A stretch of 64,000 bases of DNA from Fidelibacterota bacterium (lineage in GTDB: Bacteria > Verrucomicrobiota > Kiritimatiellia > JAIPIQ01), in contig JAIPIQ010000001.1 in assembly GCA_021734645.1 (NCBI GenBank), positions 3,422 through 67,421 of the forward strand, in the 5' to 3' direction. The translations under genes were made by a program, and so were the position numbers. This document shows, piece by piece, positions 13,138 through 59,288 of this stretch. Below the pieces are notes generated by a model. That model ran no database searches. It was not told the origin of the DNA and saw nothing but the letters and a program-made list of their open reading frames with translations. Within the stretch, counting starts at the first letter, position 1. Each line of letters opens with the position of its first letter.

Positions 13138-13144
13138 GGACAGT

Positions 13145-41414: not shown

Positions 41415-41435
41415 GCGGCCGGAAATGAGGGAACC

Positions 41436-42916: not shown

Positions 42917-43068
42917 AATACGTGTGCACGTCCTGTGGCTACATCTACGATCCCGAGGCCGGTGATCCCGGCCAGGGGATTGCGCCGGGCACGTCGTTCG
43001 CGGCCCTGCCCGAGACGTGGCGTTGTCCGCTCTGCTATGCCGAAAAGGAAGCGTTCGATCCGTTGTGA
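42913..43068 (+). CDS. Rubredoxin
   Basis: Found by reading: [51 protein letters not shown], 51 aa with CxxCG...CPxC. The ATG overlaps the thyX stop (ATGA). Confidence 0.88.
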
Positions 43069-43078
43069 GTGCCGGGTG

Positions 43079-44437: not shown

Positions 44438-44763
44438 TGCCCCCCACCGTGGTGACCCCCTATGCCGCCCGCGTCTACGCGGTCGTGCGGACCATTCCGG
44501 CCGGGCGCGTGGCCTCCTACGCCTGGGTGGCGGCCCGCGCCGGCGGATCACCCCGCGCCGTGGGGCAGGCCTTGCGTCGGAATCCCTTCGCCCCGGAGGT
44601 CCCCTGCCATCGCGTGATTGCCGCCCAAGGCGCCCCCGGTGGGTTTCAGGGGCGGGCGGAAGGCGCCGCGCTGGCCCGCAAGTTGCGCCTGCTGGCCACC
44701 GAGGGAGTTTGCTTTCACCGGGGCCGACTCGTCAACCCCGCCGTTCTCCTGAAAGCGGAGTAA
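44437..44763 (+). CDS. Minimal methylated-DNA-protein-cysteine methyltransferase (Ogt/MGMT active-site domain only)
   Basis: PCHRVI active-site motif, 108 aa. The start overlaps the amidohydrolase stop. Confidence 0.75.
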   Translation: MPPTVVTPYAARVYAVVRTIPAGRVASYAWVAARAGGSPRAVGQALRRNPFAPEVPCHRVIAAQGAPGGFQGRAEGAALARKLRLLATEGVCFHRGRLVNPAVLLKAE

Positions 44764-44794
44764 CAGGCGGCCCGCCCGACTGGCGACAAAGACC

Positions 44795-45595
44795 TCAGGC
44801 TGGGGGCGCCAGCCAGCGGCGCACAAACAGGAGCACGCCCGCGCCCAGTAGCAGGGACAGGGTCCCCGGCTCGGGAACAATATCGAAGGAGAGTGTCGGT
44901 CGTTTATAGTCCTCGTCCAGCGTGACGGAATTCTCGTCATTCTGGAACCACCAATTTCCCGGACTGATGTCGTTCCACGGGCCGTCGGGATAGTCCTTGT
45001 GCCATATGCGCAGCGCGAAGGAAACGTGGGCGGCCGAAGTGCCCGCATAATCGTTCAGATACGACGTCAACGCGTTGTTATTCGTTGATACCTGAAAGAA
45101 AGTGCCGGCGTTGGCCACAACCAGCGATGACGCGCCATTCATCTCCCCGATTTCACTGCCAATGGTCCCCTGTCGGTTCCAGGTGATATTGGTGGCGGTG
45201 GTGGTATCGGTGCCCCAGTCCTCGTCCCCCCAGGGGGTTGTCCCGTCGGACTGCACATTGCTCGCCTCATAGAGATACAACCGACCGTCCGAGGTAGACC
45301 CGCCACGCGCCCACTCGAAGTGCGCGTTGGCGATGGATTGGCCGGCGGACAGGGCGGGTAGCTCGAACTTGAGCCAGATGCGAGTGGTAGACCTGCCCGT
45401 AGTGTTCGTCATCCACTCATGCTGATTGATGTAGTTATTCCGGGCGTTGGCGTCCGTGTTGTCCGGAGTGTCCGCTCTAACCACGGCATCCTCACTGCAG
45501 TACAAGGAGTAATCGAAATCGTATACATCCGCCACCGCGGTGAATGTCAGCGCCCACGCCACCGTCCCCAGTATCCAGCACATGTTCTTGCGCAT
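44795..45595 (-). CDS. PEP-CTERM-anchored secreted protein
   Basis: Signal peptide. C-terminal VPEPGTLSLLLGAGVLLFVRRW (PEP motif, TM segment and basic tail). Confidence 0.75.
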   Translation of the reverse strand: MRKNMCWILGTVAWALTFTAVADVYDFDYSLYCSEDAVVRADTPDNTDANARNNYINQHEWMTNTTGRSTTRIWLKFELPALSAGQSIANAHFEWARGGSTSDGRLYLYEASNVQSDGTTPWGDEDWGTDTTTATNITWNRQGTIGSEIGEMNGASSLVVANAGTFFQVSTNNNALTSYLNDYAGTSAAHVSFALRIWHKDYPDGPWNDISPGNWWFQNDENSVTLDEDYKRPTLSFDIVPEPGTLSLLLGAGVLLFVRRWLAPPA

Positions 45596-45672
45596 CTTCT
45601 CTTCCTCCGTTTATGGCCCTGCTCGAATGCGAGCCCGTCATTCAATATCAGTATTATTTGAATAAGAACCTC

Positions 45673-46956
45673 TCATCCCGGTGGTGACAAGTTCTTTCTG
45701 GTTTGTTGTTGCGCATTAGTGGTGCGATATTGCGCAAGGGACACCGGAGGTTCGCGCAGATCCCAGACGAGGCCGAGGCGTTCGAGGGCGCGCAGGATGG
45801 CGTAGGTGATATCCATTTCGCCGGGTCGGAAGCCCTGGCGGGTGGCAATGGGGTAGCGATGGTGGTTGTTGTGCCAACCTTCGCCGAACGTCAGCAGGGC
45901 GAGGATCAGGTTGTTGCCGCTGGTATCCGGGGTGTCGTAGGGGCGGCGCCCGACCAGATGCATGAGGGAGTTGATGCAGAAGGTTGCGTGATAGACCAGG
46001 ACGGTGCTCAGGAAGAAGCCCCAGGCGAGCATCTGGGGGCCGGTGACGTTCCCGGCGGGCCGCGTGGCGGCCAGGGCGGCGCCCAGGCCATACAGGGCGC
46101 CGGCCAGGAGCAGGGGGGGCAGATAGGCGTGGCGGTCAAGCCAGCGCAGTTCGGGAAACCGGGCGAAATCGGGAATGCGTTCGAGGCGGGTGGCCGTATG
46201 GCGGGAACAGAGCAGCCAGCCGATATGCGCCCACCAGAAACCGTCCCGCACGGGCGAATGGATATCCGCATCCTGATCGGCATGCTGGTGGTGGTGACGG
46301 TGATGGGCGGCCCACCAGAGGGGGCCCAGTTGCGCGGCGGTGGCGCCGATGAACGCCAGGACGAACTGGAAGCCGCGGCTGGTGCGGTAGCTCTTATGGG
46401 CGAAGTACCGGTGGTAGCCGCCGGTCAGGGCGAAGACACGCAGGGCATAGAGCAACAGGCAGGCGCTGAGCGCGGCCCAACTGAAACCGACCCAGAACAC
46501 GCTCAGGGCGGCCAGGTGCATCAACAGCAGGGGGGCGGCATCGCGGACGGTGATGCGTTCGTCCGGGCGGCGCGCGCGCCGGGGCGCCGCCGGGGCTTCG
46601 GGATCCGGCGCGCTCGTCAAGCGCTGGCCCGTCTCCAGCTCCAGTTCCGCGGCCCGGCCCGCCGGCAGTTCCAAGGCTTGGCGGGTGCCGCGCGGCGCCC
46701 GGATCAACCGGCCCGGCGGGACATCGGCCCGGATCTTCAGGATTCGGCCCTCGCGGTCCAGGAATACGGCATCAAGCGGGAAGCGCATGGCCAGAGTGTG
46801 CAGGCTGCCGCCGGGCACAAACAACAGGCCGGCCTCCGGCGGGCACGGAAAGCCGAGCCAGCCGCGCAGGCGCGCGCTCAAGGTCCGCGCCCTGCGCACC
46901 CCGCGCAACAACCCAACGCCGTCCCGGTCTATCCTGAGCTTGTCCATACGTTGCAT
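45673..46956 (-). CDS. DUF192 (COG1430) domain fused to a membrane acyl-CoA/lipid desaturase
   Basis: N-terminal ~110 aa match the DUF192 pattern. C-terminal HRYFAH, HHRHHH and HNNHH histidine boxes. Confidence 0.78.
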   Translation of the reverse strand: MQRMDKLRIDRDGVGLLRGVRRARTLSARLRGWLGFPCPPEAGLLFVPGGSLHTLAMRFPLDAVFLDREGRILKIRADVPPGRLIRAPRGTRQALELPAGRAAELELETGQRLTSAPDPEAPAAPRRARRPDERITVRDAAPLLLMHLAALSVFWVGFSWAALSACLLLYALRVFALTGGYHRYFAHKSYRTSRGFQFVLAFIGATAAQLGPLWWAAHHRHHHQHADQDADIHSPVRDGFWWAHIGWLLCSRHTATRLERIPDFARFPELRWLDRHAYLPPLLLAGALYGLGAALAATRPAGNVTGPQMLAWGFFLSTVLVYHATFCINSLMHLVGRRPYDTPDTSGNNLILALLTFGEGWHNNHHRYPIATRQGFRPGEMDITYAILRALERLGLVWDLREPPVSLAQYRTTNAQQQTRKNLSPPG

Positions 46957-47042
46957 TATTCTCTAGCGCCGCCCAGCCCCGAACGCCAGCCCAATCTGTC
47001 CGCTCGACAGTGCCGGCCGACATGCTATGCTGGCCCCGGAAT

Positions 47043-47127
47043 GGGCGAGTGGTGGAATTGGCAGACACGCAAGACTTAGGATCTTGTGCCGCAAGGCGTG
47101 CGGGTTCGAGTCCCGCCCCGCCCACCA
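47043..47127 (+). tRNA. tRNA-Leu (anticodon TAG), type II with a long variable arm, CCA encoded
   Basis: Manually folded. One A-C mismatch in the acceptor stem, T-loop TTCGAGT, anticodon loop CTTAGGA. Confidence 0.8.
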
Positions 47128-47134
47128 ACCCCCG

Positions 47135-47160
47135 GGGCGAACAGAACCCCGTGTTCGCCC
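47135..47160 (+). terminator. Stem-loop (8-bp stem GGGCGAAC/GTTCGCCC, 10-nt loop) directly after tRNA-Leu. Could be a tRNA 3' terminator or an attachment-site remnant.
   Basis: Seen in sequence. Confidence 0.3.
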
Positions 47161-47176
47161 AAAGGACTTTGTGAAC

Positions 47177-48772
47177 ATGTATGAGATGAAGTTCGCCATG
47201 CAGGGCGCGCAGGACAACGGCGAGTTCTTCACCCCGCCCGCGCTCGTCAAGACCCTCGTCAACGTCATCGAGCCGGACCACGGCATCGTCTTCGATCCCG
47301 CCTGCGGCTCAGGCGGCATGTTCGTCCAGTCCAGCCACTTCATCGAGCGCCGTGGCGACCGCGCCGCCCACAAGGTCACTTTCTACGGGCACGAGTACAA
47401 GACGAGCAACATCCGGCTGGCTCTGATGAACCTCGCCGTCCACGCCCTCGAGGGCTCGATCAAGGAGGCCAACACCTTCTATGACGATCCGCACGAGCTG
47501 TTCGGGAAGTGCGACTTCGTCATGGCCAATCCGCCGTTCAACGTGGACAAGGTGGATGCAGGGAAGATCAGGACTGACCGACGCCTGCCGTTCGGATTGC
47601 CGGGCGTGAACAAGGACAAGCAGGTCAGCAACGGGAACTACCTGTGGATCTCGTTCTTCTGGAGCTACCTGAACCAGACCGGCCGCGCCGGGTTTGTCAT
47701 GTCGTCCCAGGCCAGCAGCGCTGGCCACGGCGAGGCCGAAGTCCGCCGCAAGCTCGTCGAAACCGGCGACGTGGACGTGATGATCTCCATCCGCTCCAAC
47801 TTCTTCTACACGCGAACCGTGCCCTGCGAACTCTGGCACTTCGACAAGGGCAAGCCCGCCGCCCGGCGCGACCAGGTGCTGATGATTGACGCCCGGAACA
47901 TCTATCGCAAGGTCACCCGCAAGATTTACGACTTCTCCCCGGAGCAGCAGCAGAACCTCGCCGCCATCGTCTGGCTTTACCGCGGCCAGCCCGACCGCTT
48001 TGTCGGGCTGGTGCAGCAGTACCTCGACCGCACTCTCGCCGAAGCCGCCGCAATAGCCGCTAAGATCGAATCCTTCCGCAAAGCGTGCGCCGCCCTCGCA
48101 ACTGCCGCCGCACCCTTTTTCAAGACCCTGCCCAAAGATTCGCCCCTGCGCGATGGGATCAAGGAACGTGACGATGCGGCCAAGGTTTGTTTCCAAGGCC
48201 TGGATGATCTGATTGCGCGAGTCTCCAAGGATTGGAAGAACTCCTGCGAACCTAACCTCACCGCACAGAAGAAACGGCAGGCCAGCCTGGACGAGCTCGC
48301 CGCTGCCTGCCGGGACCTGGTGAAGGACGCCGACCTCGTCTACAAGCTCGCAGCCCGCGTCTCGGACGCAGCAGAAAAGGATGCCGGGGCCAAGGAGCAC
48401 GACGACTGGGACGGCCGCGCCATCGGGCGGCTGGAGAAAGAACTCGACGCCCGCCGCAAGGAACTGGTCGAACAACTCAAGACCGCCGCCTACTTCGAGC
48501 GGCAGGCCCACTGGCTCCTCTCGCGCTTTCCGGACGGGAAGCTCGTCGCCGTCCCCGGCCTCGTGAAGCTGGTGGACCGCAAGGAAATCGAAGCCGCCGA
48601 CTGGAGCCTCACCCCCGGTCGCTACGTCGGCGTCGCCCCCGTCGAGGACGACGAGGACTTCGACTTCGAGCAGACCCTGCGCGACATCCACACCGAACTC
48701 GCCGACCTGAACAAGGAGGCGGCGGAGTTGGCGGCGACGATTCAGAAGAACTTCGAGGGGCTGGGGATATGA
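47177..48772 (+). CDS. hsdM: Type I restriction-modification N6-adenine DNA methyltransferase subunit, lacking the N-terminal HsdM_N domain
   Basis: Begins at MYEMKF (equivalent to DMYEGLL of EcoKI M). Motif X FFTPP, motif I FDPACGSGGM, motif IV NPPF and the long coiled-coil C-terminal tail ...LTPGRYVG... Confidence 0.85.
   Translation: MYEMKFAMQGAQDNGEFFTPPALVKTLVNVIEPDHGIVFDPACGSGGMFVQSSHFIERRGDRAAHKVTFYGHEYKTSNIRLALMNLAVHALEGSIKEANTFYDDPHELFGKCDFVMANPPFNVDKVDAGKIRTDRRLPFGLPGVNKDKQVSNGNYLWISFFWSYLNQTGRAGFVMSSQASSAGHGEAEVRRKLVETGDVDVMISIRSNFFYTRTVPCELWHFDKGKPAARRDQVLMIDARNIYRKVTRKIYDFSPEQQQNLAAIVWLYRGQPDRFVGLVQQYLDRTLAEAAAIAAKIESFRKACAALATAAAPFFKTLPKDSPLRDGIKERDDAAKVCFQGLDDLIARVSKDWKNSCEPNLTAQKKRQASLDELAAACRDLVKDADLVYKLAARVSDAAEKDAGAKEHDDWDGRAIGRLEKELDARRKELVEQLKTAAYFERQAHWLLSRFPDGKLVAVPGLVKLVDRKEIEAADWSLTPGRYVGVAPVEDDEDFDFEQTLRDIHTELADLNKEAAELAATIQKNFEGLGI
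48704..48772 (+). repeat. hsdM 3'-terminal segment, copy A (authentic end). Its TGA overlaps the ATG of the next gene.
   Basis: Roughly 69 nt, repeated at 49863-49928 and 50673-50741. Confidence 0.8.
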
Positions 48773-49797
48773 GCGACGCACCCGCAAAACTTCCTGGTGA
48801 CTATGCCGCGCTACTGGTCGAGATCAAGGAACGCGTCCGCTCCGCGCAACTCGCCGCTTTCCGGGCGGTCAACAAGGGGCTGGTCGGGCTGTATTGGGAT
48901 ATCGGGCTGATGATTGTCGAACGGCAGGCCGGGGAAACATGGGGGAAGGCAATTGTCCAACAACTGGCTGGAGATTTGCAGCGGGAGTTCCCGGACGTCG
49001 GCGGGTTTTCGGCCTCCAATCTGTGGCGGATGAAGGGATTCTACGAGGCGTATCGCGCCTCCGGAAAACTCGCACCACTGGTGCGAGAAATCGCCTGGAG
49101 TCACAACCTCATCATCTTGGAGCGGTGCAATGAACCGCTGGAGCGCGAGTTCTACCTGCGGATGACCCGCAAATTCGGCTGGTCCAAGAACGTGCTGATC
49201 CACCAGATCGAGAACCAGACCTACGAAAAGAGCCTGCTCGGCCAGACCAACTTCGATAAGGTCTTGACGCCCGAATTGCGCGCCCAGGCCAAGCTGGCCG
49301 TCCGGGATGAGTACAGCTTTGACTTTCTGGAATTGAGCGCAAAGCATTCCGAACGCGAACTCGAACGGGCACTGATTGCGCGCATCGAGCATTTCCTCCG
49401 CGCCATGGGCGGCATGTTTGCCTTTGTCGGCAGTCAGTTCCGGCTGGAAGTCGAGGGCAAGGAGTATTTCATAGACCTGCTCCTGTTCCATCGCCGCCTC
49501 AAATGCTTGGTCGCCATCGAGCTCAAGATCGGCGAGTTCGAGCCCGAGTTCATCGGCAAGATGCAGTTCTATCTGACGGCCCTGGATAAGCAGGTTCGCG
49601 AGGAGGGCGAGAACCCGGCCATCGGCATCATCCTCTGCAAGGAAAAGAAACGCACCGTCGTGGAATACGCCCTCGCACCCGTCAACAAACCCATCGGTGT
49701 CGCCACCTACCAGATCGTCAAACGACTGCCCAAAGCCCTCAAAGGCCAACTCCCCAGTCCCGAACAGATCGTCAAATTGCTGGAGGAGGGCGTGTGA
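48769..49797 (+). CDS. DUF1016/YhcG-family PD-(D/E)xK nuclease inserted between hsdM and hsdS
   Basis: DUF1016_N-like N-terminus (LYWDIGLMIVERQ...GFSASNLWRMKGFY). C-terminal D...ELK core (FIDLLLFH...VAIELKIGEF). Confidence 0.82.
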   Translation: MSDAPAKLPGDYAALLVEIKERVRSAQLAAFRAVNKGLVGLYWDIGLMIVERQAGETWGKAIVQQLAGDLQREFPDVGGFSASNLWRMKGFYEAYRASGKLAPLVREIAWSHNLIILERCNEPLEREFYLRMTRKFGWSKNVLIHQIENQTYEKSLLGQTNFDKVLTPELRAQAKLAVRDEYSFDFLELSAKHSERELERALIARIEHFLRAMGGMFAFVGSQFRLEVEGKEYFIDLLLFHRRLKCLVAIELKIGEFEPEFIGKMQFYLTALDKQVREEGENPAIGIILCKEKKRTVVEYALAPVNKPIGVATYQIVKRLPKALKGQLPSPEQIVKLLEEGV

Positions 49798-49862
49798 AAG
49801 ACGGCAAATCATCCTGCCGCGCCAATGGTGCAAGACACACTGGCACAATTATATCGCCCGCC

Positions 49863-49928
49863 GCCCTGAAGACTCAGGTGGCGGAACTGGCCGCGACGAT
49901 TCAGAAGAACTTCGAGGGGCTGATGTGA
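49863..49928 (+). repeat. hsdM 3'-terminal segment, copy B (partial, diverged). Encodes ...AELAATIQKNFEGLM*
   Basis: A 30-nt identical core, gcgacgattcagaagaacttcgaggggctg, shared with copy A. Confidence 0.8.
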
Positions 49929-49940
49929 AGAGGGTCATGC

Positions 49941-50017
49941 AAAGGACAAAAAGGACGAAAAGGACAAAAAACGCCGCGGCGCCACTCTTTTTCGTTTCTC
50001 TGGTCCTTTTTGTCCTT
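49941..50017. repeat. Long imperfect inverted repeat / hairpin (AAAGGACAAAAAGGAC ... CGCCGCGGCG ... GTCCTTTTTGTCCTTT) immediately upstream of the four-helix-bundle gene
   Basis: Seen in sequence. The palindromic centre lies at 49972-49981. Confidence 0.6.
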
Positions 50018-50031
50018 TCAGTCCCTTTCTT

Positions 50032-50619
50032 ATGGAGTTCTCCATGACAACCGACGGCTTCATTCCGGCGCATGGCGGGTTCCAGGCATTGAAATCCTAT
50101 CAGAAGGCGGTCATTGTCTATGATGCCACCGTGCGATTCTGCGACCGGTTCATCGCCAAGCGTGGCGACCGCACGCGCGATCAGATGATCCAGGCGGCGC
50201 GGTCGGGCAAGCAGAACATTGTCGAGGGCAGCCAGTTCTCCGGCACATCTAAGGAAATAGAATTGAAGCTGACCAATGTGGCCCGCGCCAGCCTGGCGGA
50301 GCTGGCGGAAGACTACCGCGACTTCCTGCGCTTACGTGGCGCGGAGGAATGGCCAGCCACGCATCCGTATGCCCAACGCCTGCGCGCGCTCAACCGGCAG
50401 CCCGGCGCCGGCTATGAGACGTTTCGCAAAGGGATCGAGCATGAAGACCCACTTATCGCCGCGAACGTCATCCTGGGACTGACCCGCGTGACCTGCTTCC
50501 TGCTGGACCGCCAGCTCAAGCATCTGGAAAAGGCCTTTATTGAAGAGGGCGGTTTGCGCGAACGCATGACCCGCGCCCGCCTCGACCGCCGAGCCCAACA
50601 ACGAGGCCACACCCCATGA
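50032..50619 (+). CDS. Four-helix-bundle protein (TIGR02436 / 23S rRNA intervening-sequence protein family)
   Basis: KSYQKAV...NIVEGSQFSGTSKEIELKLTNVARASLAEL family signature. Flanked by the direct repeat TCCTTTTTGTCC (50004-50015 and 50636-50647). Confidence 0.72.
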   Translation: MEFSMTTDGFIPAHGGFQALKSYQKAVIVYDATVRFCDRFIAKRGDRTRDQMIQAARSGKQNIVEGSQFSGTSKEIELKLTNVARASLAELAEDYRDFLRLRGAEEWPATHPYAQRLRALNRQPGAGYETFRKGIEHEDPLIAANVILGLTRVTCFLLDRQLKHLEKAFIEEGGLRERMTRARLDRRAQQRGHTP

Positions 50620-50672
50620 CCCCCACCCCCTTCCGTCCTTTTTGTCCCTTGGCCCCAAATGACGCCCCGGCT

Positions 50673-50741
50673 GACCTGAACAAGGAGGCGGTGGAGTTAG
50701 CGGCAAAGATTCAGCGGAACCTCGAGGGGTCGGGGATATGA
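50673..50741 (+). repeat. hsdM 3'-terminal segment, copy C (diverged, ...DLNKEAVELAAKIQRNLEGSGI*). Its TGA overlaps the hsdS ATG.
   Basis: Aligned by eye to copy A. Confidence 0.8.
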
Positions 50742-51910
50742 AGTGGCGACCGCACCAACTCCGAGATCTCTGCTGTCAGGTAGTCTCCGGCGGAACACCG
50801 TCAACAAGCCAATCTCATTTCTATGGCGGCCCAATTCCATGGCTCCGAACACAGGAGGTCACTTTCAACCGTATAGCGGAAACAGAAATGACCATCACGG
50901 AGGATGGATTGGCGAACTCAACAGCCAAATGGGTCCCCGAGAACAGCGTCATCGTCGCGATGTACGGCAACTCTGCAGGCCGCGTTGCAACCAATTTGAT
51001 TCCCCTGACCACGAATCAAGCCTGCTGTAACCTCATTATCGATTCCAGCAAAGCTGACTACCGCTTCATCTTCTACCGGCTAATGCTCGATTACAACGTG
51101 CTGCACCAGATGGCAAAAGGGGCCGCTCAAAACAATCTCAACGCAGGACAGATCAAAGCATACACAATACAAGCGCCCTCCGTGTCTGAACAGGGCGCGA
51201 TTGCTGAAGTTGTGTCCGCCTACGACGATCTGATCGAAAACAACCGGCGGCGGATGAAGCTGCTGGAGGAGGCCGCCCGGCAGTTGTACCGCGAGTGGTT
51301 CGTCCGCCTCCGCTTTCCCGGCCATGAACGCGCCAAGATCAAGAATGGCCTGCCCGAGGGGTGGGAGAGACAACCATTGGGAGACTTGGCCGATGTCACG
51401 ATGGGCCAAAGTCCCGAATCATCGTACTACAATGAGACTGGCGAAGGGCTTCCATTCCACCAAGGCGTTGCCGATTTCGGAGATCGTTTTGTTTCTCACC
51501 GCGTATTCACCACAGCCCTGAACCGTCTTGCTGAACCCAGCGATATCCTTTGTAGCGTTCGCGCTCCGGTTGGTCGGCTCAATCTGACGCTCGACAAGAT
51601 AGTGATCGGGCGGGGCCTCTCCGCTATCCGAAGTCGCACAAACCATCAGTCGCTGTTGTTCTACCAACTGCGGAACCACTTCTTCAAAGAGGATTTGATC
51701 GGCGCGGGATCAATCTTCGCATCGGTAACGAAAGCGGAGTTTCTTCGACAGGAGATTCTTGTCCCACCCAAGCATGTAGCCGATGCATTCGAAGATGTGT
51801 CCCGCCCACTTGACGACCAACTGCGGCTACAGAATGAGCAGAACCAGAAGCTCCGCTCTGCCCGTGATTTGCTGCTGCCGAAGCTGATGAGCGGGGAGCT
51901 TGCGGTATGA
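50738..51910 (+). CDS. hsdS: Type I restriction-modification specificity subunit with two target-recognition domains
   Basis: 390 aa with a central conserved coiled-coil repeat (IENNRRRMKLLEEAARQLYREWFVRLRFPGHE) and a repeat of it at the C-terminus. Visibly lower GC than the flanks. Confidence 0.87.
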   Translation: MKWRPHQLRDLCCQVVSGGTPSTSQSHFYGGPIPWLRTQEVTFNRIAETEMTITEDGLANSTAKWVPENSVIVAMYGNSAGRVATNLIPLTTNQACCNLIIDSSKADYRFIFYRLMLDYNVLHQMAKGAAQNNLNAGQIKAYTIQAPSVSEQGAIAEVVSAYDDLIENNRRRMKLLEEAARQLYREWFVRLRFPGHERAKIKNGLPEGWERQPLGDLADVTMGQSPESSYYNETGEGLPFHQGVADFGDRFVSHRVFTTALNRLAEPSDILCSVRAPVGRLNLTLDKIVIGRGLSAIRSRTNHQSLLFYQLRNHFFKEDLIGAGSIFASVTKAEFLRQEILVPPKHVADAFEDVSRPLDDQLRLQNEQNQKLRSARDLLLPKLMSGELAV

Positions 51911-52000
51911 GAGGTATGAGGGGTCTGAGGGCCTGCGGAGCAGGGCCATTGGGCTTGTCGCCGCGGAAGCAACCGGTGTATGATTGAACCCGGGTGAGAA

Positions 52001-52780
52001 ATGAGCACGGTACGGACTATAGAATTCGTTCTTCGAGGAAAGGTCGGTGGCGTCGAACTGACGCCGCGCATGATCGGTTTGTCGCAATTTAACGAGTTCA
52101 ACCAGCAGGTCGAAGCGTTTATCGCGGGTTCCCAGCGGGGCAAGCAGAACGAAACGCATGTGGAGGTCGCCGAGGGTTCCTACAAGCTCCGGGTTACGCT
52201 GGCCGCGGCGGCGGCGCTGGCGCTCCAACCGGACCTCGTGCTCATGGCGCGCGACGACGCGCTCGGCGAGCTGGACCCGAAGCGGGCCGAGGTGGTGTCC
52301 AAGTGGCAGGCGTCCGCCCGGCGGGATGACGGCTATGAGTACGAGATCCGGCCCGATCTGGAGGCCCTGCCCAAGGTCATGTTGACGAAAAGGACCGACT
52401 ACCGGATCGGGGCGGCGAGCCCCTGGGTGACGGTCGAAAAATACCTTTTTGGGGTGGTCGAGGACATGGGTGGGGCGCAGAAGGCGAACATTCACCTGCG
52501 GTTGCGCGATACGGGGCAGACCGTGATTGTCGGCGCGTCTCAGGACTTCCTCCGCGATCAGTCCGAAAACCGTGTCTATCGGCAGGCGCTCTTGCGCGTC
52601 AAGGCTGAACAGCACTTCAAAACCGGTCAGTTGCGCAATGTCCGCCTCCTTGCGTTCGAGGATTACGCTCCCTCCTACGACGAGAACGCGCTCAATGCGT
52701 TTTCGTACCAGGGAACTCAGGCGTGGCGCGACATTCCGGATGCCGTGGCTTGGGTCCGCGAGCAGAGGGGAGGTCGCTGA
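52001..52780 (+). CDS. Uncharacterised 259-aa protein embedded between hsdS and hsdR. No recognisable family. Appears to have an internal two-fold repeat.
   Basis: Intact ORF, co-oriented. Its stop lies 3-28 nt before the hsdR start. Confidence 0.5.
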   Translation: MSTVRTIEFVLRGKVGGVELTPRMIGLSQFNEFNQQVEAFIAGSQRGKQNETHVEVAEGSYKLRVTLAAAAALALQPDLVLMARDDALGELDPKRAEVVSKWQASARRDDGYEYEIRPDLEALPKVMLTKRTDYRIGAASPWVTVEKYLFGVVEDMGGAQKANIHLRLRDTGQTVIVGASQDFLRDQSENRVYRQALLRVKAEQHFKTGQLRNVRLLAFEDYAPSYDENALNAFSYQGTQAWRDIPDAVAWVREQRGGR

Positions 52781-52808
52781 TGGGTGCCGGGGATTGAACG
52801 GCGTTCTG

Positions 52809-55800
52809 ATGGCCTACACCGACATCAACAGCGAGGACCGGCTGGTGCAGGTGACCTTCGCCGAGCATCTGGAACGGCAGCTTGGTTGGGAGAGCGTGTT
52901 TGCCTGGAATGAGGAAACCTTCGGGCCTAACGGTACGCTGGGGCGGGCAGACACGCGCGAGGTGGTCCTGACCCGCGATTTGCGGGCGGCTGTGGGCCGA
53001 CTCAACCCCGACCTGCCCGCGACGGCCCTGGACGAGGCAGTACGCACGATGTCGCGACACGACTTCACGCGGTCGTTGCTACAACACAACCAGGATTTCC
53101 ACGGCTTCATGCGCGACGGCGTGCCGGTCTCCTATCGCGACGCGCAGGGAGTTCTGCGCGAGGAACGGGCGCGGGTGCTTGACTTCCGCAACGCGGCGAA
53201 CAACCGGTTCCTGGCGGTGCGCGAGCTGAAGCTCACCAGTCTGCGCATGCCGAGCTACAACCGCCGGGCGGACCTGGTCTACTTCGTCAACGGCCTGCCG
53301 CTGGTGTTTATTGAGCTGAAAGCCGTTTACAAGAATATTCGGGCCGCTTTTGATGGCAACCTGCGCGATTATATGGACGAGCACATCGTCGCCCACGCCT
53401 TTCATCACAATGCGTTTCTGGTCGTCAGCAACGGACACCGCGCCCGGTACGGAGCGATCACCAGTGCGTGGGACCATTTCGCGGAGTGGAAACGCCTCGA
53501 TGAGGCGGACAAGGGCAGCGTCGAGGCAGAGGTGCTCCTGAACGGGATGCTGGCGCATGACCGCCTGCTGGACATTGTCGAGAATTTCATCCTGTTCGAC
53601 GCCAGCAAACCGGGCCAGACCCGCAAGATCGTGGCACGCAACCACCAGGTTCACGGGGTCAACCAGGCGGTGGCGGCGGTGCGGCGGCAGGAGGAGTTGA
53701 AACAGGCGTTTCCGCCTGAGCTGCGCCTGAAGTCCCGCACCATTGAACTGCTGCCGCGCATGGCGGCCGAAGTCTCGCCAAGGGGCGACGCCCTGTACGA
53801 AGATCCGGTCGTCGAGTGGCCCGAGATGGCCGAGTCATTGAGCCTGCTTAAATACGTCGAACCGGCCCATCCGGACCTGGGAAGACTGGGCGTGTTCTGG
53901 CATACGCAGGGCAGCGGCAAGTCCTACTCGATGGCCTTTTTCGCGGAGAAGGTCCGACGCACGATATCGGCCAAGTTCACCTTCCTGCTGATGACCGACC
54001 GCCAGGATCTCGACGGCCAGATATTCGACACGTTCCGCGGCTGCGGCGTGGTGGACGAGAAGTCCCCCCGCGCCGCGACGGGCGAAGATCTCAAGCATCT
54101 CCTGGGAGAGAACCACCGCTATATCTTCAGCCTGATCCACAAGTTCAACCAGGATGTGGACCCGCGCAAGCCCTACAGTCCGCGGGACGACATCATCGTG
54201 ATCTCCGACGAGGCCCACCGGACGCAGGCCGGCAAACTGGCCCGCAACATGCGGCTGGCTCTGCCGAATGCCTCCTTTATCGGGTTCACCGGCACACCCC
54301 TGTTCAAGCACGACCACCTCACCCGGCGCATTTTCGGCACCTACGTCTCGCGCTACGACTTCAAACGGTCCGAGCAGGACGGCTCGACCGTCAAACTCGT
54401 GTACGAGAACCGGGGCGAGAAACTGGGCCTGGCCCGGCTCGACCTTAACGACCGCATCGCCGCCGCCATTGCCAAAGCTGAACTGAACCCCGACGAGGAA
54501 CTCCTGCTGGAGAAACTGCTCGGGCAGGACTACGAGGTGATCACGGCCCGCAATCGCCTCAATAAAATCGCATTCGATTTCGTCGAACACTGTGCCACCC
54601 GGTGGGAATCGGGAAAATCCATGTTCGTCTGCCTGGATAAGATCACCTGCGGCCGCATGCTCAAACGGGTCAGGCGCCTCTGGAAACTCAAATTGGCGCG
54701 GGTGCAGCAGGTGCTCAACCGCAAGCAAACCGCGCTGGCGACCCAGACCAACGAAGACCATCGTGAACGCATTGCAAAAGAAGTGGCTTGGTTGCGAGGA
54801 CAGGCGAACTGGCTGCGGGAGACGATGGTTGAACTCGTGGTATCCGAGGGGCAGAACGAAATCGCCGACTTCAAGAAGTGGGGGATTGACATCCTGCCGC
54901 ACCGGGCGCTGATGAAGCAGGGGTTCGAGACCCCGGACGGCAAGCGGGTGGATGTGGAAACCGCTTTCAAGGATCCGGCCCATCCGTTCCGCGTGGCGAT
55001 TGTCTGCGCCATGTGGCTGACCGGTTTCGATGTCGAATGTCTCTCTACGCTGTACATAGACAAGCCCATGAAGGCGCACACGCTCATGCAGGCCATCGCG
55101 CGGGCCAACCGGGTTTATCCCGGCAAGGATTTCGGCCTGATTGGGGCAAAGGGCTTCGCCAAAATTGCGGCGCTCGCCGACGGCGTGGAAGCGGTCACCA
55201 GCGCCCGAGACGAGGGACGGCGGCGGTTCGAAATCATGGCGCGCCAGGTCTTCGACCGTTTCAAGGCGCTGCTCATGGAACCGGCCGCCTTTGCTTTCGC
55301 AGAGCGGCACGACAACATTGAGGCGATTTACAAGAAACTTCAGGAACGGCGCGATACCGCTGACGTTACCGAGTTGCTCAAGGAACTACAGCGGGTGGTC
55401 AACGAGGCCATTCGTGCCGCCGCCCCCGGCGCCGACCAGGCGGATGCCAAACTTTACGACTTGAGCGCCGTGGACCTGGAAAAACTGCGCGCCGAGTTTG
55501 CCAAGAAGGCCACGCACAAGGCCACGGTCCTGGAGGACATCCGGCAGATCGTCGAAAAGAAACTGGCGCAGATGCTCGCCCGGAACCCGCAGCGCATGGA
55601 CTATTACAAGAAGTACTCCGAAATCATTGCCGACTACAACCACGACAAGGATCGGGTTACGATTGAAGAAACCTTTGCCCGGCTGGTTGACTTGGCTGCG
55701 AGCCTGGACGCCGAATCCCGGCGCGCCGCCGAAGAAGGCCTGAGCGAAGAAGAATACGCCCTGTTCTGCCTGCTACAGAAGGACCGTATCAGCAAGGCTG

Positions 55801-56045
55801 ACCGGGACCGGATCAAACTCGCCAGCCGCCAGCTCTACGATTCGCTCCGAGCATTGCTCGCCCGACGCGAGCAATGGACCCAGAAGGAACAGACGCAGGC
55901 GGAAGTCGAGACCCTGATTCTGGACCACCTGTTTGTGGCGCTGCCGACGCCACCCTACACGGAAGCAGAGAAACAGGCTGCGGCAAAACAGGTCTACCAG
56001 TTCGTCTGGCAGCAATCCGCCAGTGGGGTGTTTGTGGCGGCTTGA
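52809..56045 (+). CDS. hsdR: Type I restriction enzyme endonuclease/helicase subunit (alternative TTG start at 52794)
   Basis: HsdR_N-like N-terminus, Walker A HTQGSGKS, DEAH VISDEAHRTQ, roughly 1078 aa. Confidence 0.9.
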   Translation: MAYTDINSEDRLVQVTFAEHLERQLGWESVFAWNEETFGPNGTLGRADTREVVLTRDLRAAVGRLNPDLPATALDEAVRTMSRHDFTRSLLQHNQDFHGFMRDGVPVSYRDAQGVLREERARVLDFRNAANNRFLAVRELKLTSLRMPSYNRRADLVYFVNGLPLVFIELKAVYKNIRAAFDGNLRDYMDEHIVAHAFHHNAFLVVSNGHRARYGAITSAWDHFAEWKRLDEADKGSVEAEVLLNGMLAHDRLLDIVENFILFDASKPGQTRKIVARNHQVHGVNQAVAAVRRQEELKQAFPPELRLKSRTIELLPRMAAEVSPRGDALYEDPVVEWPEMAESLSLLKYVEPAHPDLGRLGVFWHTQGSGKSYSMAFFAEKVRRTISAKFTFLLMTDRQDLDGQIFDTFRGCGVVDEKSPRAATGEDLKHLLGENHRYIFSLIHKFNQDVDPRKPYSPRDDIIVISDEAHRTQAGKLARNMRLALPNASFIGFTGTPLFKHDHLTRRIFGTYVSRYDFKRSEQDGSTVKLVYENRGEKLGLARLDLNDRIAAAIAKAELNPDEELLLEKLLGQDYEVITARNRLNKIAFDFVEHCATRWESGKSMFVCLDKITCGRMLKRVRRLWKLKLARVQQVLNRKQTALATQTNEDHRERIAKEVAWLRGQANWLRETMVELVVSEGQNEIADFKKWGIDILPHRALMKQGFETPDGKRVDVETAFKDPAHPFRVAIVCAMWLTGFDVECLSTLYIDKPMKAHTLMQAIARANRVYPGKDFGLIGAKGFAKIAALADGVEAVTSARDEGRRRFEIMARQVFDRFKALLMEPAAFAFAERHDNIEAIYKKLQERRDTADVTELLKELQRVVNEAIRAAAPGADQADAKLYDLSAVDLEKLRAEFAKKATHKATVLEDIRQIVEKKLAQMLARNPQRMDYYKKYSEIIADYNHDKDRVTIEETFARLVDLAASLDAESRRAAEEGLSEEEYALFCLLQKDRISKADRDRIKLASRQLYDSLRALLARREQWTQKEQTQAEVETLILDHLFVALPTPPYTEAEKQAAAKQVYQFVWQQSASGVFVAA

Positions 56046-56188
56046 TGCGCGGCGCGGCGCAGGCTGCCGGACGCGGACGGTGAATGGAAAGTGGGCCGCG
56101 GGAACAGCAACCCCCCAATAGCGAAAAACCGCGCACTTTTTACTTGACGGGGCTGGCGGCGCTGCATAGGGTGCCCGTCGCCTCAGAC

Positions 56189-56264
56189 GCCCCTATCGTC
56201 TAGTGGCCCAGGACGCCGGGTTCTCATCCCGGAAACAGGGGTTCAATTCCCCTTGGGGGTGCCA
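56189..56264 (+). tRNA. tRNA-Glu (anticodon CTC), CCA encoded
   Basis: Manually folded. D-arm GTCTAGTGGCCCAGGAC is typical of tRNA-Glu. T-loop TTCAATT. Confidence 0.75.
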
Positions 56265-56269
56265 TTGCT

Positions 56270-56515
56270 TCATTCCGGATCGGGAATCCATTCGAAAACC
56301 ACGGTGGGATCGTGTCCGGTGGCGGGGCAGGTCGCGCAGGCGCCCGGGATGGCCCGGCCGCCGCACCCCACCAGCCGCCGCTGGATGCGGCCGTGCCGAC
56401 AGGCCATGGCCAGCATGTCGTCCAGCGCCTCCGGCGCGATTTCCAGTATCCGGGCCAGCTCGTCCAGGGTCACCTTCTGGCGGGTGGCAATTTCTCTCAA
56501 GGCGGCTCTCAGCAT
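56270..56515 (-). CDS. FeoC-like winged-helix / Cys-cluster regulator, orphan (no feoAB nearby)
   Basis: Aligns with FeoC: ...LDELARILEIAPEALDDMLAMACRHGRIQRR...GCGG...CATCP. Track ORF extends to 56536. Confidence 0.55.
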   Translation of the reverse strand: MLRAALREIATRQKVTLDELARILEIAPEALDDMLAMACRHGRIQRRLVGCGGRAIPGACATCPATGHDPTVVFEWIPDPE

Positions 56516-56673
56516 CGGTCTCCCTCCATCGTTCATGCGTTCCCATACAGTTTACCCGCGGCGGGCGCGAACGCAAGCGCCGAGCGCGCGCCGGGTGTTT
56601 CGGGTCGGGGGCGGACATTTTTTTGTGGCCATCACCGCGCGCTGTGTTATATTGGTGGTCGTTGACGGGAACC

Positions 56674-56748
56674 AGGCGCGGTAGCCAAGTGGTAAGGCGG
56701 AGGTCTGCAAAACCTTTATTCAGCGGTTCGAATCCGCTCCGCGCCTCC
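56674..56748 (+). tRNA. tRNA-Cys (anticodon GCA), CCA encoded
   Basis: Manually folded. Acceptor GGCGCGG/CCGCGCC, anticodon loop CTGCAAA. Confidence 0.8.
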
Positions 56749-56780
56749 AATTATTCCCTTTTCACCCGAAAGGAAGCGCA

Positions 56781-58106
56781 ATGGAACGACCCAACATACT
56801 GTACATTCTGGCGGACGACCTGGGCTGGGGCGATTTGAGTCTGCACGGCTCGCCCATTCGCACGCCGAACATTGACCAGTTGGCGCGGGAAGGGGTCGAG
56901 CTGACGCAGCACTATGTTTGCCCCATGTGCACGCCGACGCGCGCCTCGCTGTTGACGGGCCGGTATCCGAGTCGTTTCGGCCCCCATGGCACGGTGCCGT
57001 CGAATGCGCCGGTGTTCCCGGACGGCTACCAGACGCTGGCCACGATCCTGCGCGACGCGGGGTACGACACGGGTCTGTTCGGCAAATGGCATTTGGGCTC
57101 CGCCCCGCAGTATGGTCCGAATCAGTACGGGTTCAATACGGCCTACGGCAGTCTGGCGGGCGGGATTGATCCGTACAGCCATCGGTACAAGCGCGGCGAG
57201 TTTTCGGTGGCGTGGCATCGCAACGGCACGCTGGTGGAAGAGCGGGGGCATGTCACCGATTTGATCCTGAACGAGGCCCGGGAGTGGATCGAGACCCGGA
57301 ATCAGCCCTGGTTCTGTTATGTGCCGTTCACGGCCGTGCATATTCCCATCAAGCCGACACAGGAGTGGATGGCGCGGTACTATCCCGAGCAGTTCGACGA
57401 CGATCCGTTGAAGGACCGTTCGTACAAGATGTATGCGGCCTACACCAGCCATATGGATCATGCCATCGGGCAACTGCTCGAGACCCTCGAGCAATTGGGC
57501 CAGCGCGAGAACACGATCATCGTGTTTTCTTCGGACAATGGCGCGGTCAACGAAACACCGCTGCATGCCACGGACCAATATCCCGGTTGGCAGGAAGCGT
57601 ATCCGCGGCTGGGATCGAACGCGCCCTGGCGCGGGGTCAAGGCACAATTGTACGAGGGCGGCATCCGCACGCCCACCCTCGTCAACTGGCGCAGTCGGCT
57701 GACGCCGGGGCGGATGGAACACCCCGTGCAGGTCACGGATTGGATGCCCTCGTTCAGCGCGCTGGTCGGCGCGCCGCCCAAGGAAGATCCCCGGTACGAT
57801 GGCCGGGACATCTGGCCCTTGATCACGGGGGAAACCAAGACGCCCGCGCCGCGGCATCTGTTCTGGAACTTCAAGGGCGATCAGCATCTCGGGTTGCGGC
57901 TGGGCGACTGGAAACTGATCGTCAACCACAAGCAGGGCCATTCGAAACAGGAGCTGTTCAACCTGGCGGACGATCCGTATGAGCAGAATGACCAAGCCAG
58001 CGATCGGCCCGACAAGGTCGCGGAGCTGGCGGCGTTGATTGCGGCAGAGCGGCAAGCGGACAATTCGTCGGCCCGGTCTGATGTGGCCGGGCCCCGGATG
58101 CCCTAA
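56781..58106 (+). CDS. Arylsulfatase-family sulfatase with no obvious signal peptide
   Basis: CPMCTPTRASLLTGR (C-x-P-x-R formylglycine signature) and the sulfatase N-terminal LADDLGWGD. Confidence 0.88.
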   Translation: MERPNILYILADDLGWGDLSLHGSPIRTPNIDQLAREGVELTQHYVCPMCTPTRASLLTGRYPSRFGPHGTVPSNAPVFPDGYQTLATILRDAGYDTGLFGKWHLGSAPQYGPNQYGFNTAYGSLAGGIDPYSHRYKRGEFSVAWHRNGTLVEERGHVTDLILNEAREWIETRNQPWFCYVPFTAVHIPIKPTQEWMARYYPEQFDDDPLKDRSYKMYAAYTSHMDHAIGQLLETLEQLGQRENTIIVFSSDNGAVNETPLHATDQYPGWQEAYPRLGSNAPWRGVKAQLYEGGIRTPTLVNWRSRLTPGRMEHPVQVTDWMPSFSALVGAPPKEDPRYDGRDIWPLITGETKTPAPRHLFWNFKGDQHLGLRLGDWKLIVNHKQGHSKQELFNLADDPYEQNDQASDRPDKVAELAALIAAERQADNSSARSDVAGPRMP

Positions 58107-58112
58107 GCGCCT

Positions 58113-59288
58113 TCAGCCATTGTCCGGCCGGGCGTCCTTGCGGGCCAGCTTCTGGGCCACGGCCTCGACGACCTGCTCGACTGTGAGATGCTGCATGCAG
58201 TGGGCTTGGTCCGTGCAATAGCGGTCCCCGTAATGCGGGCAGGTGTGTGCCTGGCGGTCATACACGCAGTTGGCGGGATAGGTGGCGGGTTGCACGACGG
58301 TATTGAACGCGCCGGTGGGATCATAGGGGCGGCAGAACACGGGATTGGTGGGGCCGAACAGGGAAACCGTATGATGGGCCCGGTACCAGCGGCCGTTGGC
58401 GGCCTGAACCGCGCCGGGCGCGTCGGGCGCCGTCTCGCTGGCGGAACCGGCCATGTGATTGGCGAAGCTGTCATTCCCGACGGAGACCGTGAAGGCGCCG
58501 GAATGCAGCAGGCAGGCGTCAACCGCCAGGGTGGTTTCCTCGACCAGGTTGGTGACCAGGCCATCTTGAAAATGAGTGCGGGCGACCTGGCGGTCATAGT
58601 CCTGATTGGGGGCGAAGCGGCCGGCGCCCATGAGCACCACTTTGCACCCCAGGTCGTGCACAAGGATTTCGGCCAGGCGGCGGAAATGGGTCGCCGGCCA
58701 GATTTTACTGAACTGCGCGGATCCGGGATTGAGCGCCACGCTTTTCACTTCGCGCAGGCCCTCGCGCCGCGCAATGGCCTCGGCGGCGTCCATGGTCTGC
58801 GGGCTGAAAGGCAGGGCAAAGGAAACCGGGGTGTGCGCCACGCCCAGGTCGCGCAGGCCGCTCAGGTAGGCCTCAACCATGTGGCCGTCGGTCCGGCGCG
58901 GCAGGCACTGAGCCCGGGGGTGCAGCAGGCGCGCCAGCAGATACTCGCGCGCATCGCGCCGGTGCGGAATCAGCACCGTGCGGTCTCCTCCCCAGGGCAT
59001 GTACAGGCCCGTCTTGCCGCGGCCCTTGAGGTCGAGGAAGGTGGCGGTGCCGTCGGCCCGGGTTTGTCGGCGCACGGCCCGCGCCGTCGCCCGCCGCGTC
59101 GCCGGGCAGTCCACGTAGACGGCCTCGAGCAGGCCGTTCTTCATGATCTCGGCCAGGGGCTGCTGGACCTGCGAGACAACCAGTGAAACCGACTCGAACC
59201 GGGTCTTGAGGGCGTGAATGGTCGGCACGATCCAGACCAGGTCGCCCAGCCAGCCGGAATAGACAATCAGGATCCGATTCGGGTTCAT
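58113..59288 (-). CDS. Glycosyltransferase family 9 (heptosyltransferase-like) with a C-terminal Cys/His-rich extension
   Basis: Start at MNPNRILIVYSGWLGD, ...SLFGPTNP..., tail C..C..CPHYGDRYC..HC. Confidence 0.78.
   Translation of the reverse strand: MNPNRILIVYSGWLGDLVWIVPTIHALKTRFESVSLVVSQVQQPLAEIMKNGLLEAVYVDCPATRRATARAVRRQTRADGTATFLDLKGRGKTGLYMPWGGDRTVLIPHRRDAREYLLARLLHPRAQCLPRRTDGHMVEAYLSGLRDLGVAHTPVSFALPFSPQTMDAAEAIARREGLREVKSVALNPGSAQFSKIWPATHFRRLAEILVHDLGCKVVLMGAGRFAPNQDYDRQVARTHFQDGLVTNLVEETTLAVDACLLHSGAFTVSVGNDSFANHMAGSASETAPDAPGAVQAANGRWYRAHHTVSLFGPTNPVFCRPYDPTGAFNTVVQPATYPANCVYDRQAHTCPHYGDRYCTDQAHCMQHLTVEQVVEAVAQKLARKDARPDNG

Follow-up and report, generated by a model that had tools for sequence, protein, structure and literature searches.

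The hsd loci of Campylobacter jejuni, which carry rlo genes, are one example of Type I restriction-modification (R-M) loci with other genes nested among those for the methylase (hsdM), specificity (hsdS) and restriction (hsdR) subunits. Likewise, EcoprrI has accessory or guardian genes such as prrC that lie between the hsd genes and travel with them (PMC12707154), and DUF1016 genes between Type I core genes have been noted before (PMC9881135). Here we analyze a locus of this type that lies between tRNA-Leu(TAG) and tRNA-Glu(CTC) on contig JAIPIQ010000001.1 of a metagenome-assembled genome (MAG). The whole stretch of DNA that we analyzed is 64,000 nucleotides (nt) long and is referred to below as the window. 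With moderate confidence, we read the interval between the two tRNA genes as a single Type I R-M operon that was acquired horizontally, contains nested accessory genes and is in early decay. As a mobile mosaic Type I R-M operon, it is a known kind of object. Modestly new are a relay of repeated hsdM tails and very short open reading frames (mini-ORFs) at the hsdM-hsdS junction, and an unnamed pair of genes encoding an OB-fold protein and a PIN-domain protein. Compared with EcoprrI-type loci, the three nested genes are neither PrrC nor RloC, and the R-M core is damaged.

Two other loci are useful for comparison. The finished plasmid pMC64A of Aeromonas media has the order hsdM - PDDEXK/DUF1016 - hsdS - RhuM - hsdR. 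Like the window, it has a DUF1016 gene between hsdM and hsdS that overlaps both of its neighbours by 4 nt, and another cargo gene before hsdR. The sequence at its junction between hsdM and the next gene also recurs at the DUF1016/hsdS junction, over only ~18 nt. The DUF1016 proteins of plasmid and window are 44% identical. Unlike the window, pMC64A has an hsdM of the usual length (519 aa), no gene for a four-helix-bundle (4HB) protein and no mini-ORFs. The second locus, L175 (MAG GCA_003563855.1, contig PWTM01000302.1), is the nearest relative; loci compared with the window are designated here by L numbers. It resembles the window in hsdM, orf259 and hsdR (81-87% DNA identity), and in having the OB-fold gene at the same place before hsdR. 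It differs in its full-length hsdM, a DUF4326 gene, a PIN gene that is still intact, and an hsdR that is divided into two parts. Where the window has the DUF1016 and 4HB genes, L175 has in its hsdM-hsdS slot a gene similar to REP-associated tyrosine transposases (RAYTs; 12079-13185).

Gene content of the interval

The initial annotation had placed six co-oriented genes between the two tRNA genes. ARAGORN and Rfam put both tRNAs where it had them, the ORF listing returned six long ORFs in one orientation, and Pfam, NCBIfam and PADLOC searches agreed with the gene identities that it had proposed, leaving the 259-aa ORF (orf259) with no family hit:

47043-47127, plus strand: tRNA-Leu(TAG), left landmark (ARAGORN; Rfam tRNA, 52.7 bits)
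47177-48772, plus strand: hsdM, 5'-truncated, 531 aa, N6 methylase of the Type I kind (N6_Mtase and MTase_I profiles)
48769-49797, plus strand: DUF1016/YhcG PD-(D/E)xK nuclease, 342 aa, cargo 1 (DUF1016_N and YhcG_C)
50044-50619, plus strand: 4HB protein, 191 aa from the ATG at 50044 (195 aa from 50032), cargo 2 (TIGR02436 and TIGR04258)
50738-51910, plus strand: hsdS, specificity subunit, 390 aa, two target-recognition domains (Methylase_S, PADLOC Specificity_I)
52001-52780, plus strand: orf259, predicted OB-fold protein, 259 aa, no family hit
52809-56045, plus strand: hsdR, restriction subunit, 1078 aa, apparently intact (HSDR_N, SWI2_SNF2/ResIII, T1R_D3-like, T1RH-like_C)
56189-56264, plus strand: tRNA-Glu(CTC), right landmark (ARAGORN, Rfam)

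Two points of that annotation had to be revised. Instead of one cargo gene in each of three slots, there are two slots: the one from hsdM to hsdS holds both DUF1016 and 4HB, and the one from hsdS to hsdR holds orf259. Moreover, two short ORFs (49794-49928 and 50616-50741) had been overlooked beside the six long ones.

Both hsdS and hsdR have the features expected of Type I subunits. Pfam Methylase_S matched hsdS in two stretches and PADLOC Specificity_I matched it over its full length, and the protein has the two target-recognition domains and the conserved spacer of a Type I HsdS. When its DNA is compared to L175, only the central and C-terminal conserved regions match, at 80-91% identity. 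The hsdR gene scores 412.7 bits with TIGR00348 (cut-off 284.55), and residues 1-1078 of its product align end to end with relatives. Its translation shows a nuclease D...ELK motif, a Walker A motif (GSGKS) and a DEAH box, and HsdR has both the N-terminal PD-(D/E)xK nuclease and the superfamily 2 (SF2) ATPase motor. In eight related loci (L085, L098, L127, L129, L148, L156, L157 and L159), the hsdR match is interrupted near residue 777 by ~160-220 nt of additional sequence, a sign that HsdR may have a variable insertion there.

The operon belongs to a family with frequent nesting

Relatives of HsdM with 80-88% identity were found in MAGs of Verrucomicrobiota, Nitrospira, Acidobacteriota and Deltaproteobacteria. 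The similarity to L175 starts within hsdM and ends at the hsdR stop codon; beyond these limits, the flanks of the two loci are unrelated. For the desaturase gene that flanks the interval, the best non-self relative is 64% identical among 5.8 billion proteins and 54% identical among species-representative genomes, and no tRNA was found beside desaturase relatives in the latter. These searches thus brought up no close relative of the host genome. The comparisons support the view that the hsd operon is foreign and mosaic, and that its family moves between phyla.

Around 45 of the related loci had both ends of the hsdS-hsdR gap placed. This gap measures at most 40 nt in about one quarter of them and 0.35-7.3 kb in the others. 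The ORFs within it encode Schlafen/AlbA_2 proteins with HATPase_c_4 (six), GmrSD (four), AAA_21/AAA_15 with OLD-TOPRIM or RloB, as well as DUF488 (PADLOC PDC-M19), TIR, CHAT, Mrr, an S8 peptidase with AAA, and two 4HB proteins. The RloB-like, AAA/OLD and GmrSD genes make this slot akin to that of other nested Type I loci. Roughly three quarters of the related loci hold genes between hsdS and hsdR, in keeping with the earlier proposal that Type I loci are hotspots of nesting. The hsdM-hsdS slot is filled less often (~12 of 70 loci), by DUF1016, 4HB or IS200/RAYT-like transposase genes. The nesting of accessory or defence genes is therefore the norm in the R-M family to which this operon belongs.

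In two related loci on metagenome contigs (L156, 381-3546, and L157, 371-3536), hsdM residues 2-313 run straight into hsdR from residue 369 onward. This fusion apparently derives from a large internal deletion and represents another decayed member of the R-M family.

The methylase has lost its N-terminal domain

The window hsdM was correctly assigned to the methylase family by the initial annotation, which had missed that its 5' end is gone. Around 164 codons are missing from the start of the gene, so that homology begins at codon 165 (hsdM nucleotide 495) and only 531 aa remain. In the blastn comparison with L175, homology starts at position 47185 of the window, 57 nt past tRNA-Leu. The alignment with four full-length hsdM genes breaks again at 47185, with weak similarity upstream. 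All Type I methylase profiles are matched only from about position 150-190 on, including PADLOC MTase_I (PDLC03035; 164-653 of 653) and TIGR00497 (191-440 of 515). The match to Pfam N6_Mtase begins at profile position 16, and hence lacks ~15 positions. The closest HsdM relatives (74-88% identical) are mostly ~690-750 aa long, with ~693 aa as the typical full length, and have the HsdM_N domain (PF12161). When we searched the window by tblastn with the N-terminal 185 residues of four relatives, we recovered only 20-22 residues at the start of the ORF, and there is no HsdM_N coding sequence within the window.

Mapping on PDB structures placed residue 9 of the window HsdM at residue ~141 of EcoKI HsdM, and residue 6 at residue 188 of EcoR124I HsdM. 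Out of the three parts of a Type I HsdM, it lacks the N-terminal domain (PF12161; EcoKI residues 1-153) and has the catalytic part, with its motifs DPACGSGG and NPPF, and the long C-terminal region. In M.EcoKI, residues 1-153 constitute this N-terminal domain, and two such domains bridge the M subunits over the DNA and thereby close the clamp (PMC2647291). The EcoKI N-domain also carries the m* mutations that alter the methylation preference, some of which abolish restriction as well (PMC2647291; PMC12707154). Since HsdR depends on a proper M2S core, restriction is probably disabled in this locus. The truncated methylase retains its catalytic and HsdS-binding parts.

The truncated gene starts immediately behind tRNA-Leu:

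47004-47031: sigma-70-like promoter match ahead of tRNA-Leu (promoter scan)
47128-47184, plus strand: junction segment, from tRNA-Leu to the start of hsdM homology

The junction segment contains a 9-bp hairpin (47135-47160; fold -24 kcal/mol, z = -2.6) with no T-run. The hairpin is followed by AAGGA-N10-ATG, which could be a new ribosome-binding site and start codon of hsdM.

As an independent assembly we used the Logan contigs of run SRR12088349, two of which equal positions 42607-47993 and 49620-58512 of the window at 100% identity. The first of them (5.4 kb) spans the desaturase gene, tRNA-Leu and 817 nt of the truncated hsdM, and the gene caller starts hsdM on it at 47177. The junction between tRNA-Leu and truncated hsdM, and the right half of the interval, were thus reproduced by a second assembler.

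Two other accounts of the truncation were rejected. The opposite orientation of tRNA-Leu(TAG) in L175 prompted us to consider an inversion, but coding sequence for the 5' part of hsdM is absent from the window, and the genes that precede the tRNA in the window and in L175 are not the same. P0001, a 528-aa HsdM with the same first residue, was considered as a case of shared truncation, but it is really a frameshift-split gene with the HsdM_N part called directly upstream.

orf259 is the remnant of a conserved gene pair

The predicted OB-fold protein encoded by orf259 has 231 homologues, all of which are unnamed and have no Pfam matches. We compared six independent contexts of these homologues (L131, L163/164, L165-167, L168-171, L172-174 and L175). 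In every one of them, a PIN-domain gene of ~170 aa lies 0-9 nt 3' of the orf259 homologue. Two contexts have the pair standing alone, and three have it in a Type I locus, immediately ahead of hsdR; in the remaining one, a fused methylase-specificity gene lies on one side of the pair and an HsdR-like gene on the other. Copies of the pair lie at:

L163, 8001-9293: OB-fold + PIN pair
L165, 8001-9292: OB-fold + PIN pair
L168, 8001-9293: OB-fold + PIN pair
L172, 800-2088: OB-fold + PIN pair
L175, 14811-16102: OB-fold + PIN pair

The PIN protein matches PF01850 only. No PADLOC model matched the pair, and neither protein reached an NCBIfam cut-off.

In the window, no PIN gene directly follows orf259, and no PIN homologue is found anywhere. 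A three-way DNA alignment instead revealed the trace of its removal:

52780-52808, plus strand: deletion scar

Of the PIN gene, the scar keeps only the first 13 nt (ATGGGTGCCGGGG, 52780-52792), which run directly into the final ~14-17 nt of the spacer that precedes hsdR. Compared to L175, ~536 bp are gone (L175 15601-16136 is left out), and the blastn blocks stop at 52790 and restart at 52796. The deletion, like the rest of the right half of the interval, is also present in the Logan assembly. We conclude that orf259 was the first member of a conserved OB-fold + PIN pair and was orphaned when a clean deletion removed the PIN gene. A promoter-like match lies ahead of orf259 (51955-51984).

The pair resembles VapBC-type pairs in the tight linkage of two genes, in the position of PIN as the second gene and in its occurrence either alone or in defence loci. 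It differs from them in that the partner is a predicted OB-fold protein of 259 aa rather than a small DNA-binding antitoxin. By this likeness, we infer that the PIN protein would be a toxin-like nuclease controlled by the OB-fold partner. With PIN as the toxic partner, losing it first would be the harmless order of decay.

Two cargo genes separate hsdM from hsdS

The ATG of the DUF1016 gene overlaps the stop codon of hsdM (ATGA). Its product matches DUF1016_N (1.6e-44, 151.8 bits) and YhcG_C (3.6e-62, 209.3 bits) in Pfam, and its translation contains a D...ELK motif (FIDLLLF...IELK). It is also the PADLOC candidate PDC-S02 (1.2e-147, 490 bits), which is a candidate defence system only. An exact-sequence look-up of the protein returned no record. 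DUF1016 genes occupy the same slot in L102-104, L114, L128 and L160, as well as in pMC64A.

The 4HB protein scores above cut-off with the suffix domain TIGR04258 (71.1 bits, cut-off 40) and with TIGR02436 (26.9 bits, cut-off 24). Its match to Pfam 23S_rRNA_IVP (PF05635) reaches 26.5 bits, under the gathering cut-off of 33.8. A gene in the same slot of L001 is 92% identical to it, and remoter copies occupy the hsdS-hsdR slot of L131, L133 and L134. The above-cut-off matches and the inverted repeats that flank the gene are shared with the TIGR02436 family of 23S rRNA intervening sequences. Unlike the ORFs of intervening sequences, the 4HB gene lies in an hsd operon and not in rRNA. The accessory protein Avd of diversity-generating retroelements is related to the TIGR02436 family too.

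The inverted repeats form a hairpin just 5' of the 4HB gene:

49940-50028, plus strand: purine-rich hairpin (inverted repeats I1, I3 and I9)

In this hairpin AAAGGAC repeats pair with GTCCTTT repeats (-43.9 kcal/mol, z = -3.8). A further copy of GTCCTTTTTGTCCC lies 3' of the 4HB gene (50628-50651), which is thus bracketed by 24-nt inverted repeats. A comparable hairpin is present in L001, where the changes on one arm are matched by changes on the other. We discarded the hairpin as a general trait of 4HB cassettes because it is present in the window and L001 only. No Rfam family was found at the hairpin.

Neither the 4HB protein nor the 259-aa protein matched any PADLOC model, and PDB sequence searches returned no match for the 4HB, DUF1016 or 259-aa proteins. 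Our literature search found no mention of 4HB proteins in R-M loci. The two cargo genes, DUF1016 and 4HB, may still be active independently.

Copies of the hsdM tail accompany the cargo

The window has three copies of the final 72 nt of hsdM, ATGA overlap included (repeat family D1): at the true end of the gene (48701-48772), at 49860-49931 (81% identity) and at 50670-50741 (86%). An in-register alignment showed that both extra copies are in frame within the two short ORFs:

49794-49928, plus strand: mini-ORF 1, 44 aa (ORF listing); its GTG start overlaps the DUF1016 stop codon (GTGA)
50616-50741, plus strand: mini-ORF 2, 41 aa (ORF listing); its ATG overlaps the 4HB stop codon (ATGA)

Mini-ORF 1 ends in 22 codons that duplicate an HsdM C-terminal tail; this tail is of a foreign 'EGLM*' type, nearest to the hsdM tails of L133/L134. 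The ORF is followed by GTGAAGAGG, which resembles the first three hsdS codons. In mini-ORF 2, the last 24 codons copy the resident HsdM tail, and the stop codon overlaps the ATG of hsdS (ATGA). An independent gene caller called both mini-ORFs in the Logan contig L162, and an equivalent ORF of 35 aa follows the 4HB gene of L001. As a result, 4-nt overlaps join hsdM to DUF1016, DUF1016 to mini-ORF 1, 4HB to mini-ORF 2 and mini-ORF 2 to hsdS, and the only gap in this chain is at the hairpin that precedes 4HB.

Our scan for tail repeats covered the window and 73 related loci, 74 in all, each of which has a complete hsdM end. Only loci in which cargo separates hsdM from hsdS had extra copies, namely L001, L104, L109, L114, L160 and the window, with shorter or weaker ones in L128 and L102. 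In total, 8 of ~11 loci with hsdM-hsdS cargo had them, compared to none of ~63 loci with no such cargo. In L109 an IS200-like insertion (12019-12471) occupies the slot and is followed by a copy of the hsdM tail. The repeats are ~30 to >96 nt long among the related loci. With pMC64A the range between loci widens to ~18 to >96 nt, so that no single fixed site is used; we accordingly rejected a fixed recombination site as their source. At the hsdS-hsdR junction, where a spacer of 5-36 nt separates genes with no overlap, we found no repeat of the hsdS tail before hsdR.

Of the two extra copies, copy 3 (50670-50741) is nearest to the resident hsdM tail; copy 2 (49860-49931) has another type of tail, which also follows the L001 4HB gene and occurs in further hsdM lineages. 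This difference in tail type suggests that cargo and tail move together between loci. In EcoKI, hsdM and hsdS overlap by 1 nucleotide and are translationally coupled (PMC3510504). We found nothing in the literature on duplications of the hsdM tail. By analogy with EcoKI, the tail repeats may keep the translation of hsdS coupled to the ORF upstream. They may also provide homology for the exchange of cargo between loci.

Composition and neighbouring genes

Parts of the interval had been described as AT-richer than the flanks. This holds for hsdS, with the lowest GC content of the interval (55%) and a GC content at third codon positions (GC3) of 0.63. Overall, the contrast is modest, with 60.6% GC in the interval and 64.6% in the rest of the window. 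We compared GC3 with that of the 48 ORFs outside the interval (mean 0.79, standard deviation 0.065), and hsdS was the sole clear outlier, more than 2 standard deviations from the window mean (hsdM 0.85, DUF1016 0.77, 4HB 0.76, hsdR 0.79). Since several host genes have 59-62% GC, composition alone would be no mark of an island. Two more patches of 55-60% GC lie outside the interval, at 41250-42250 (start of ThyX) and 44750-46000 (an ORF with a weak PEP-CTERM match), so that low GC is not a feature of the R-M interval alone.

The interval has ordinary genes on both sides. Profile searches identified its left neighbours as ThyX, an amidohydrolase, the weak PEP-CTERM match and a fusion of DUF192 with a fatty-acid desaturase. 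The last gene (45673-46956, minus strand) adjoins tRNA-Leu. The other desaturase homologues listed are ~270-400 aa long and cover the desaturase part only (61-72% of the query), and among them the fusion was met only in the source MAG. On the right, a small gene for a FeoC-like regulator (56270-56515, minus strand) stands alone between tRNA-Glu and the next tRNA gene, and is followed by a sulfatase gene:

56675-56749: tRNA-Cys, beyond tRNA-Glu (ARAGORN, Rfam)

The source MAG, which encodes proteins 100% identical to the desaturase and to the 259-aa protein, is labelled Candidatus Marinimicrobia at NCBI. This label looks doubtful, because the nearest named desaturase homologues belong to Kiritimatiellae and Verrucomicrobiota, and in view of the 64% GC, the sulfatase gene and the weak PEP-CTERM match.

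Alternative explanations

In the reading that we favour, the operon was acquired horizontally, gained accessory genes between its hsd genes and is now in early decay. The break of hsdM at tRNA-Leu would result from an illegitimate deletion or from the integration of an already truncated fragment, with no tRNA-specific integrase involved. The clean deletion of the PIN gene has left its OB-fold partner orphaned. Several observations weigh against this account. All six long ORFs are open across 9 kb with no frameshifts or stops, and hsdR has kept its catalytic motifs, so that the decay must be very recent or the genes are still under selection. In addition, AAGGA-N10-ATG lies directly behind the tRNA promoter, and the truncated hsdM may therefore be expressed and active. 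Finally, a displaced 5' part of hsdM may be elsewhere in the genome, as the window covers 64 kb of a 71.6-kb contig.

The initial annotation had described the locus as an island bounded by tRNA genes. The hsd operon is indeed foreign, and lies on the 3' side of tRNA-Leu. In enterobacteria leuX and similar tRNA genes anchor defence islands (PMC12707154), and the closest relative also has a tRNA-Leu(TAG) (L175 8037-8120, minus strand; 1147-1230 in L176), 1.9 kb from hsdM and 85% identical to that of the window. A classical tRNA-targeted island, in which an element inserted at tRNA-Leu and a later deletion took the integrase together with the start of hsdM, is nonetheless very unlikely. As the annotation had already stated, there is no integrase: profile scans found no integrase or recombinase among the six ORFs of the interval or the flanking ORFs. 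The last 20-30 nt of tRNA-Leu and tRNA-Glu have no copy with at least 80% identity on either strand of the window, a repeat search of the window returned no tRNA-derived repeats, and the break lies 57 nt beyond tRNA-Leu and not inside it. The tRNA-Leu of L175 has the opposite orientation, with a gene for an MscS-like channel between it and hsdM, and its vicinity to hsdM is probably coincidental. A tRNA was present within the fetched flanks of only ~5 of 50 related loci. On the right, the homology with L175 ceases exactly at the hsdR stop codon, so that no extra island DNA is evident on that side, and tRNA-Glu(CTC) is outside the transferred DNA. The reading of the locus as a tRNA-defined island is not supported.

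Two further explanations would leave the locus functional, and we consider each of them unlikely. One, proposed by the initial annotation, is an intact composite defence module, in which the six proteins cooperate and the cargo adds to the defence of a restricting R-M core or guards it. All ORFs are intact and several are joined by stop/start overlaps, DUF1016 matches a PADLOC defence candidate, the same slots of related loci hold recognized defence genes, and PrrC is a precedent for a guardian gene within a Type I locus (PMC12707154). Against such cooperation, HsdM lacks the whole N-terminal domain needed for clamp closure in EcoKI, where even point mutations can abolish restriction, the 259-aa protein has lost the PIN partner that is present in all other contexts examined, and the 4HB and 259-aa proteins match no PADLOC model. 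The other, to which we give no more weight, is a re-purposed orphan methyltransferase: the truncated HsdM and HsdS, expressed from the tRNA-Leu promoter, would act uncoupled from HsdR and with no preference for hemimethylated DNA, as an epigenetic enzyme free of restriction, and hsdR would be a silent passenger. This would fit the retention of the catalytic motifs and of the C-terminal HsdS-binding region, the possible new start signal behind the tRNA promoter, and the segment upstream of the break, which looks like diverged hsdM and now supplies the ATG; moreover, N-domain mutants of EcoKI can gain de novo methylation and lose restriction. It fits less well with the ~15 positions that are missing also at the start of the methylase profile, with the EcoKI model, in which the N-domains complete the clamp around DNA, and with the intact hsdR, which would not be expected to last long as a passenger. 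An assembly artefact, with a chimeric join between tRNA-Leu and a partial hsdM, would be conceivable for a MAG contig, as tRNA genes are common sites of misassembly. We regard it as extremely improbable, because the 5.4-kb Logan contig spans the junction at 100% identity, the break lies in unique sequence past the tRNA rather than in the conserved tRNA itself, and the second assembly also reproduces the right half of the interval, PIN deletion included.

Significance

As a horizontally acquired operon apparently in early decay, the locus is a routine mosaic R-M operon that censuses should not score as an intact defence system. Annotation at the level of domains scores hsdM, hsdS and hsdR as present, even though the methylase lacks a whole domain. 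The OB-fold/PIN pair is a widespread unnamed family of two genes, found alone or upstream of hsdR-like genes, and is a candidate toxin or defence module. The tail-repeat/mini-ORF signature marks insertions between hsdM and hsdS, and can be searched for to learn how cargo enters R-M operons without silencing hsdS.

A bolder interpretation, which we put forward only tentatively, is that the HsdM-tail mini-ORFs are a general docking device and not scars and that, separately, the OB-fold/PIN pair is a new nucleic-acid-sensing toxin module that repeatedly settles upstream of hsdR-like genes. If the docking device were true, a gene entering the hsdM-hsdS junction would carry or create a copy of the hsdM 3' end together with a stop/start overlap, and this copy would maintain the translational coupling of hsdS. 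The 20-110 nt of homology on each side could allow such cassettes to be looped out and to pass from one Type I locus to another.

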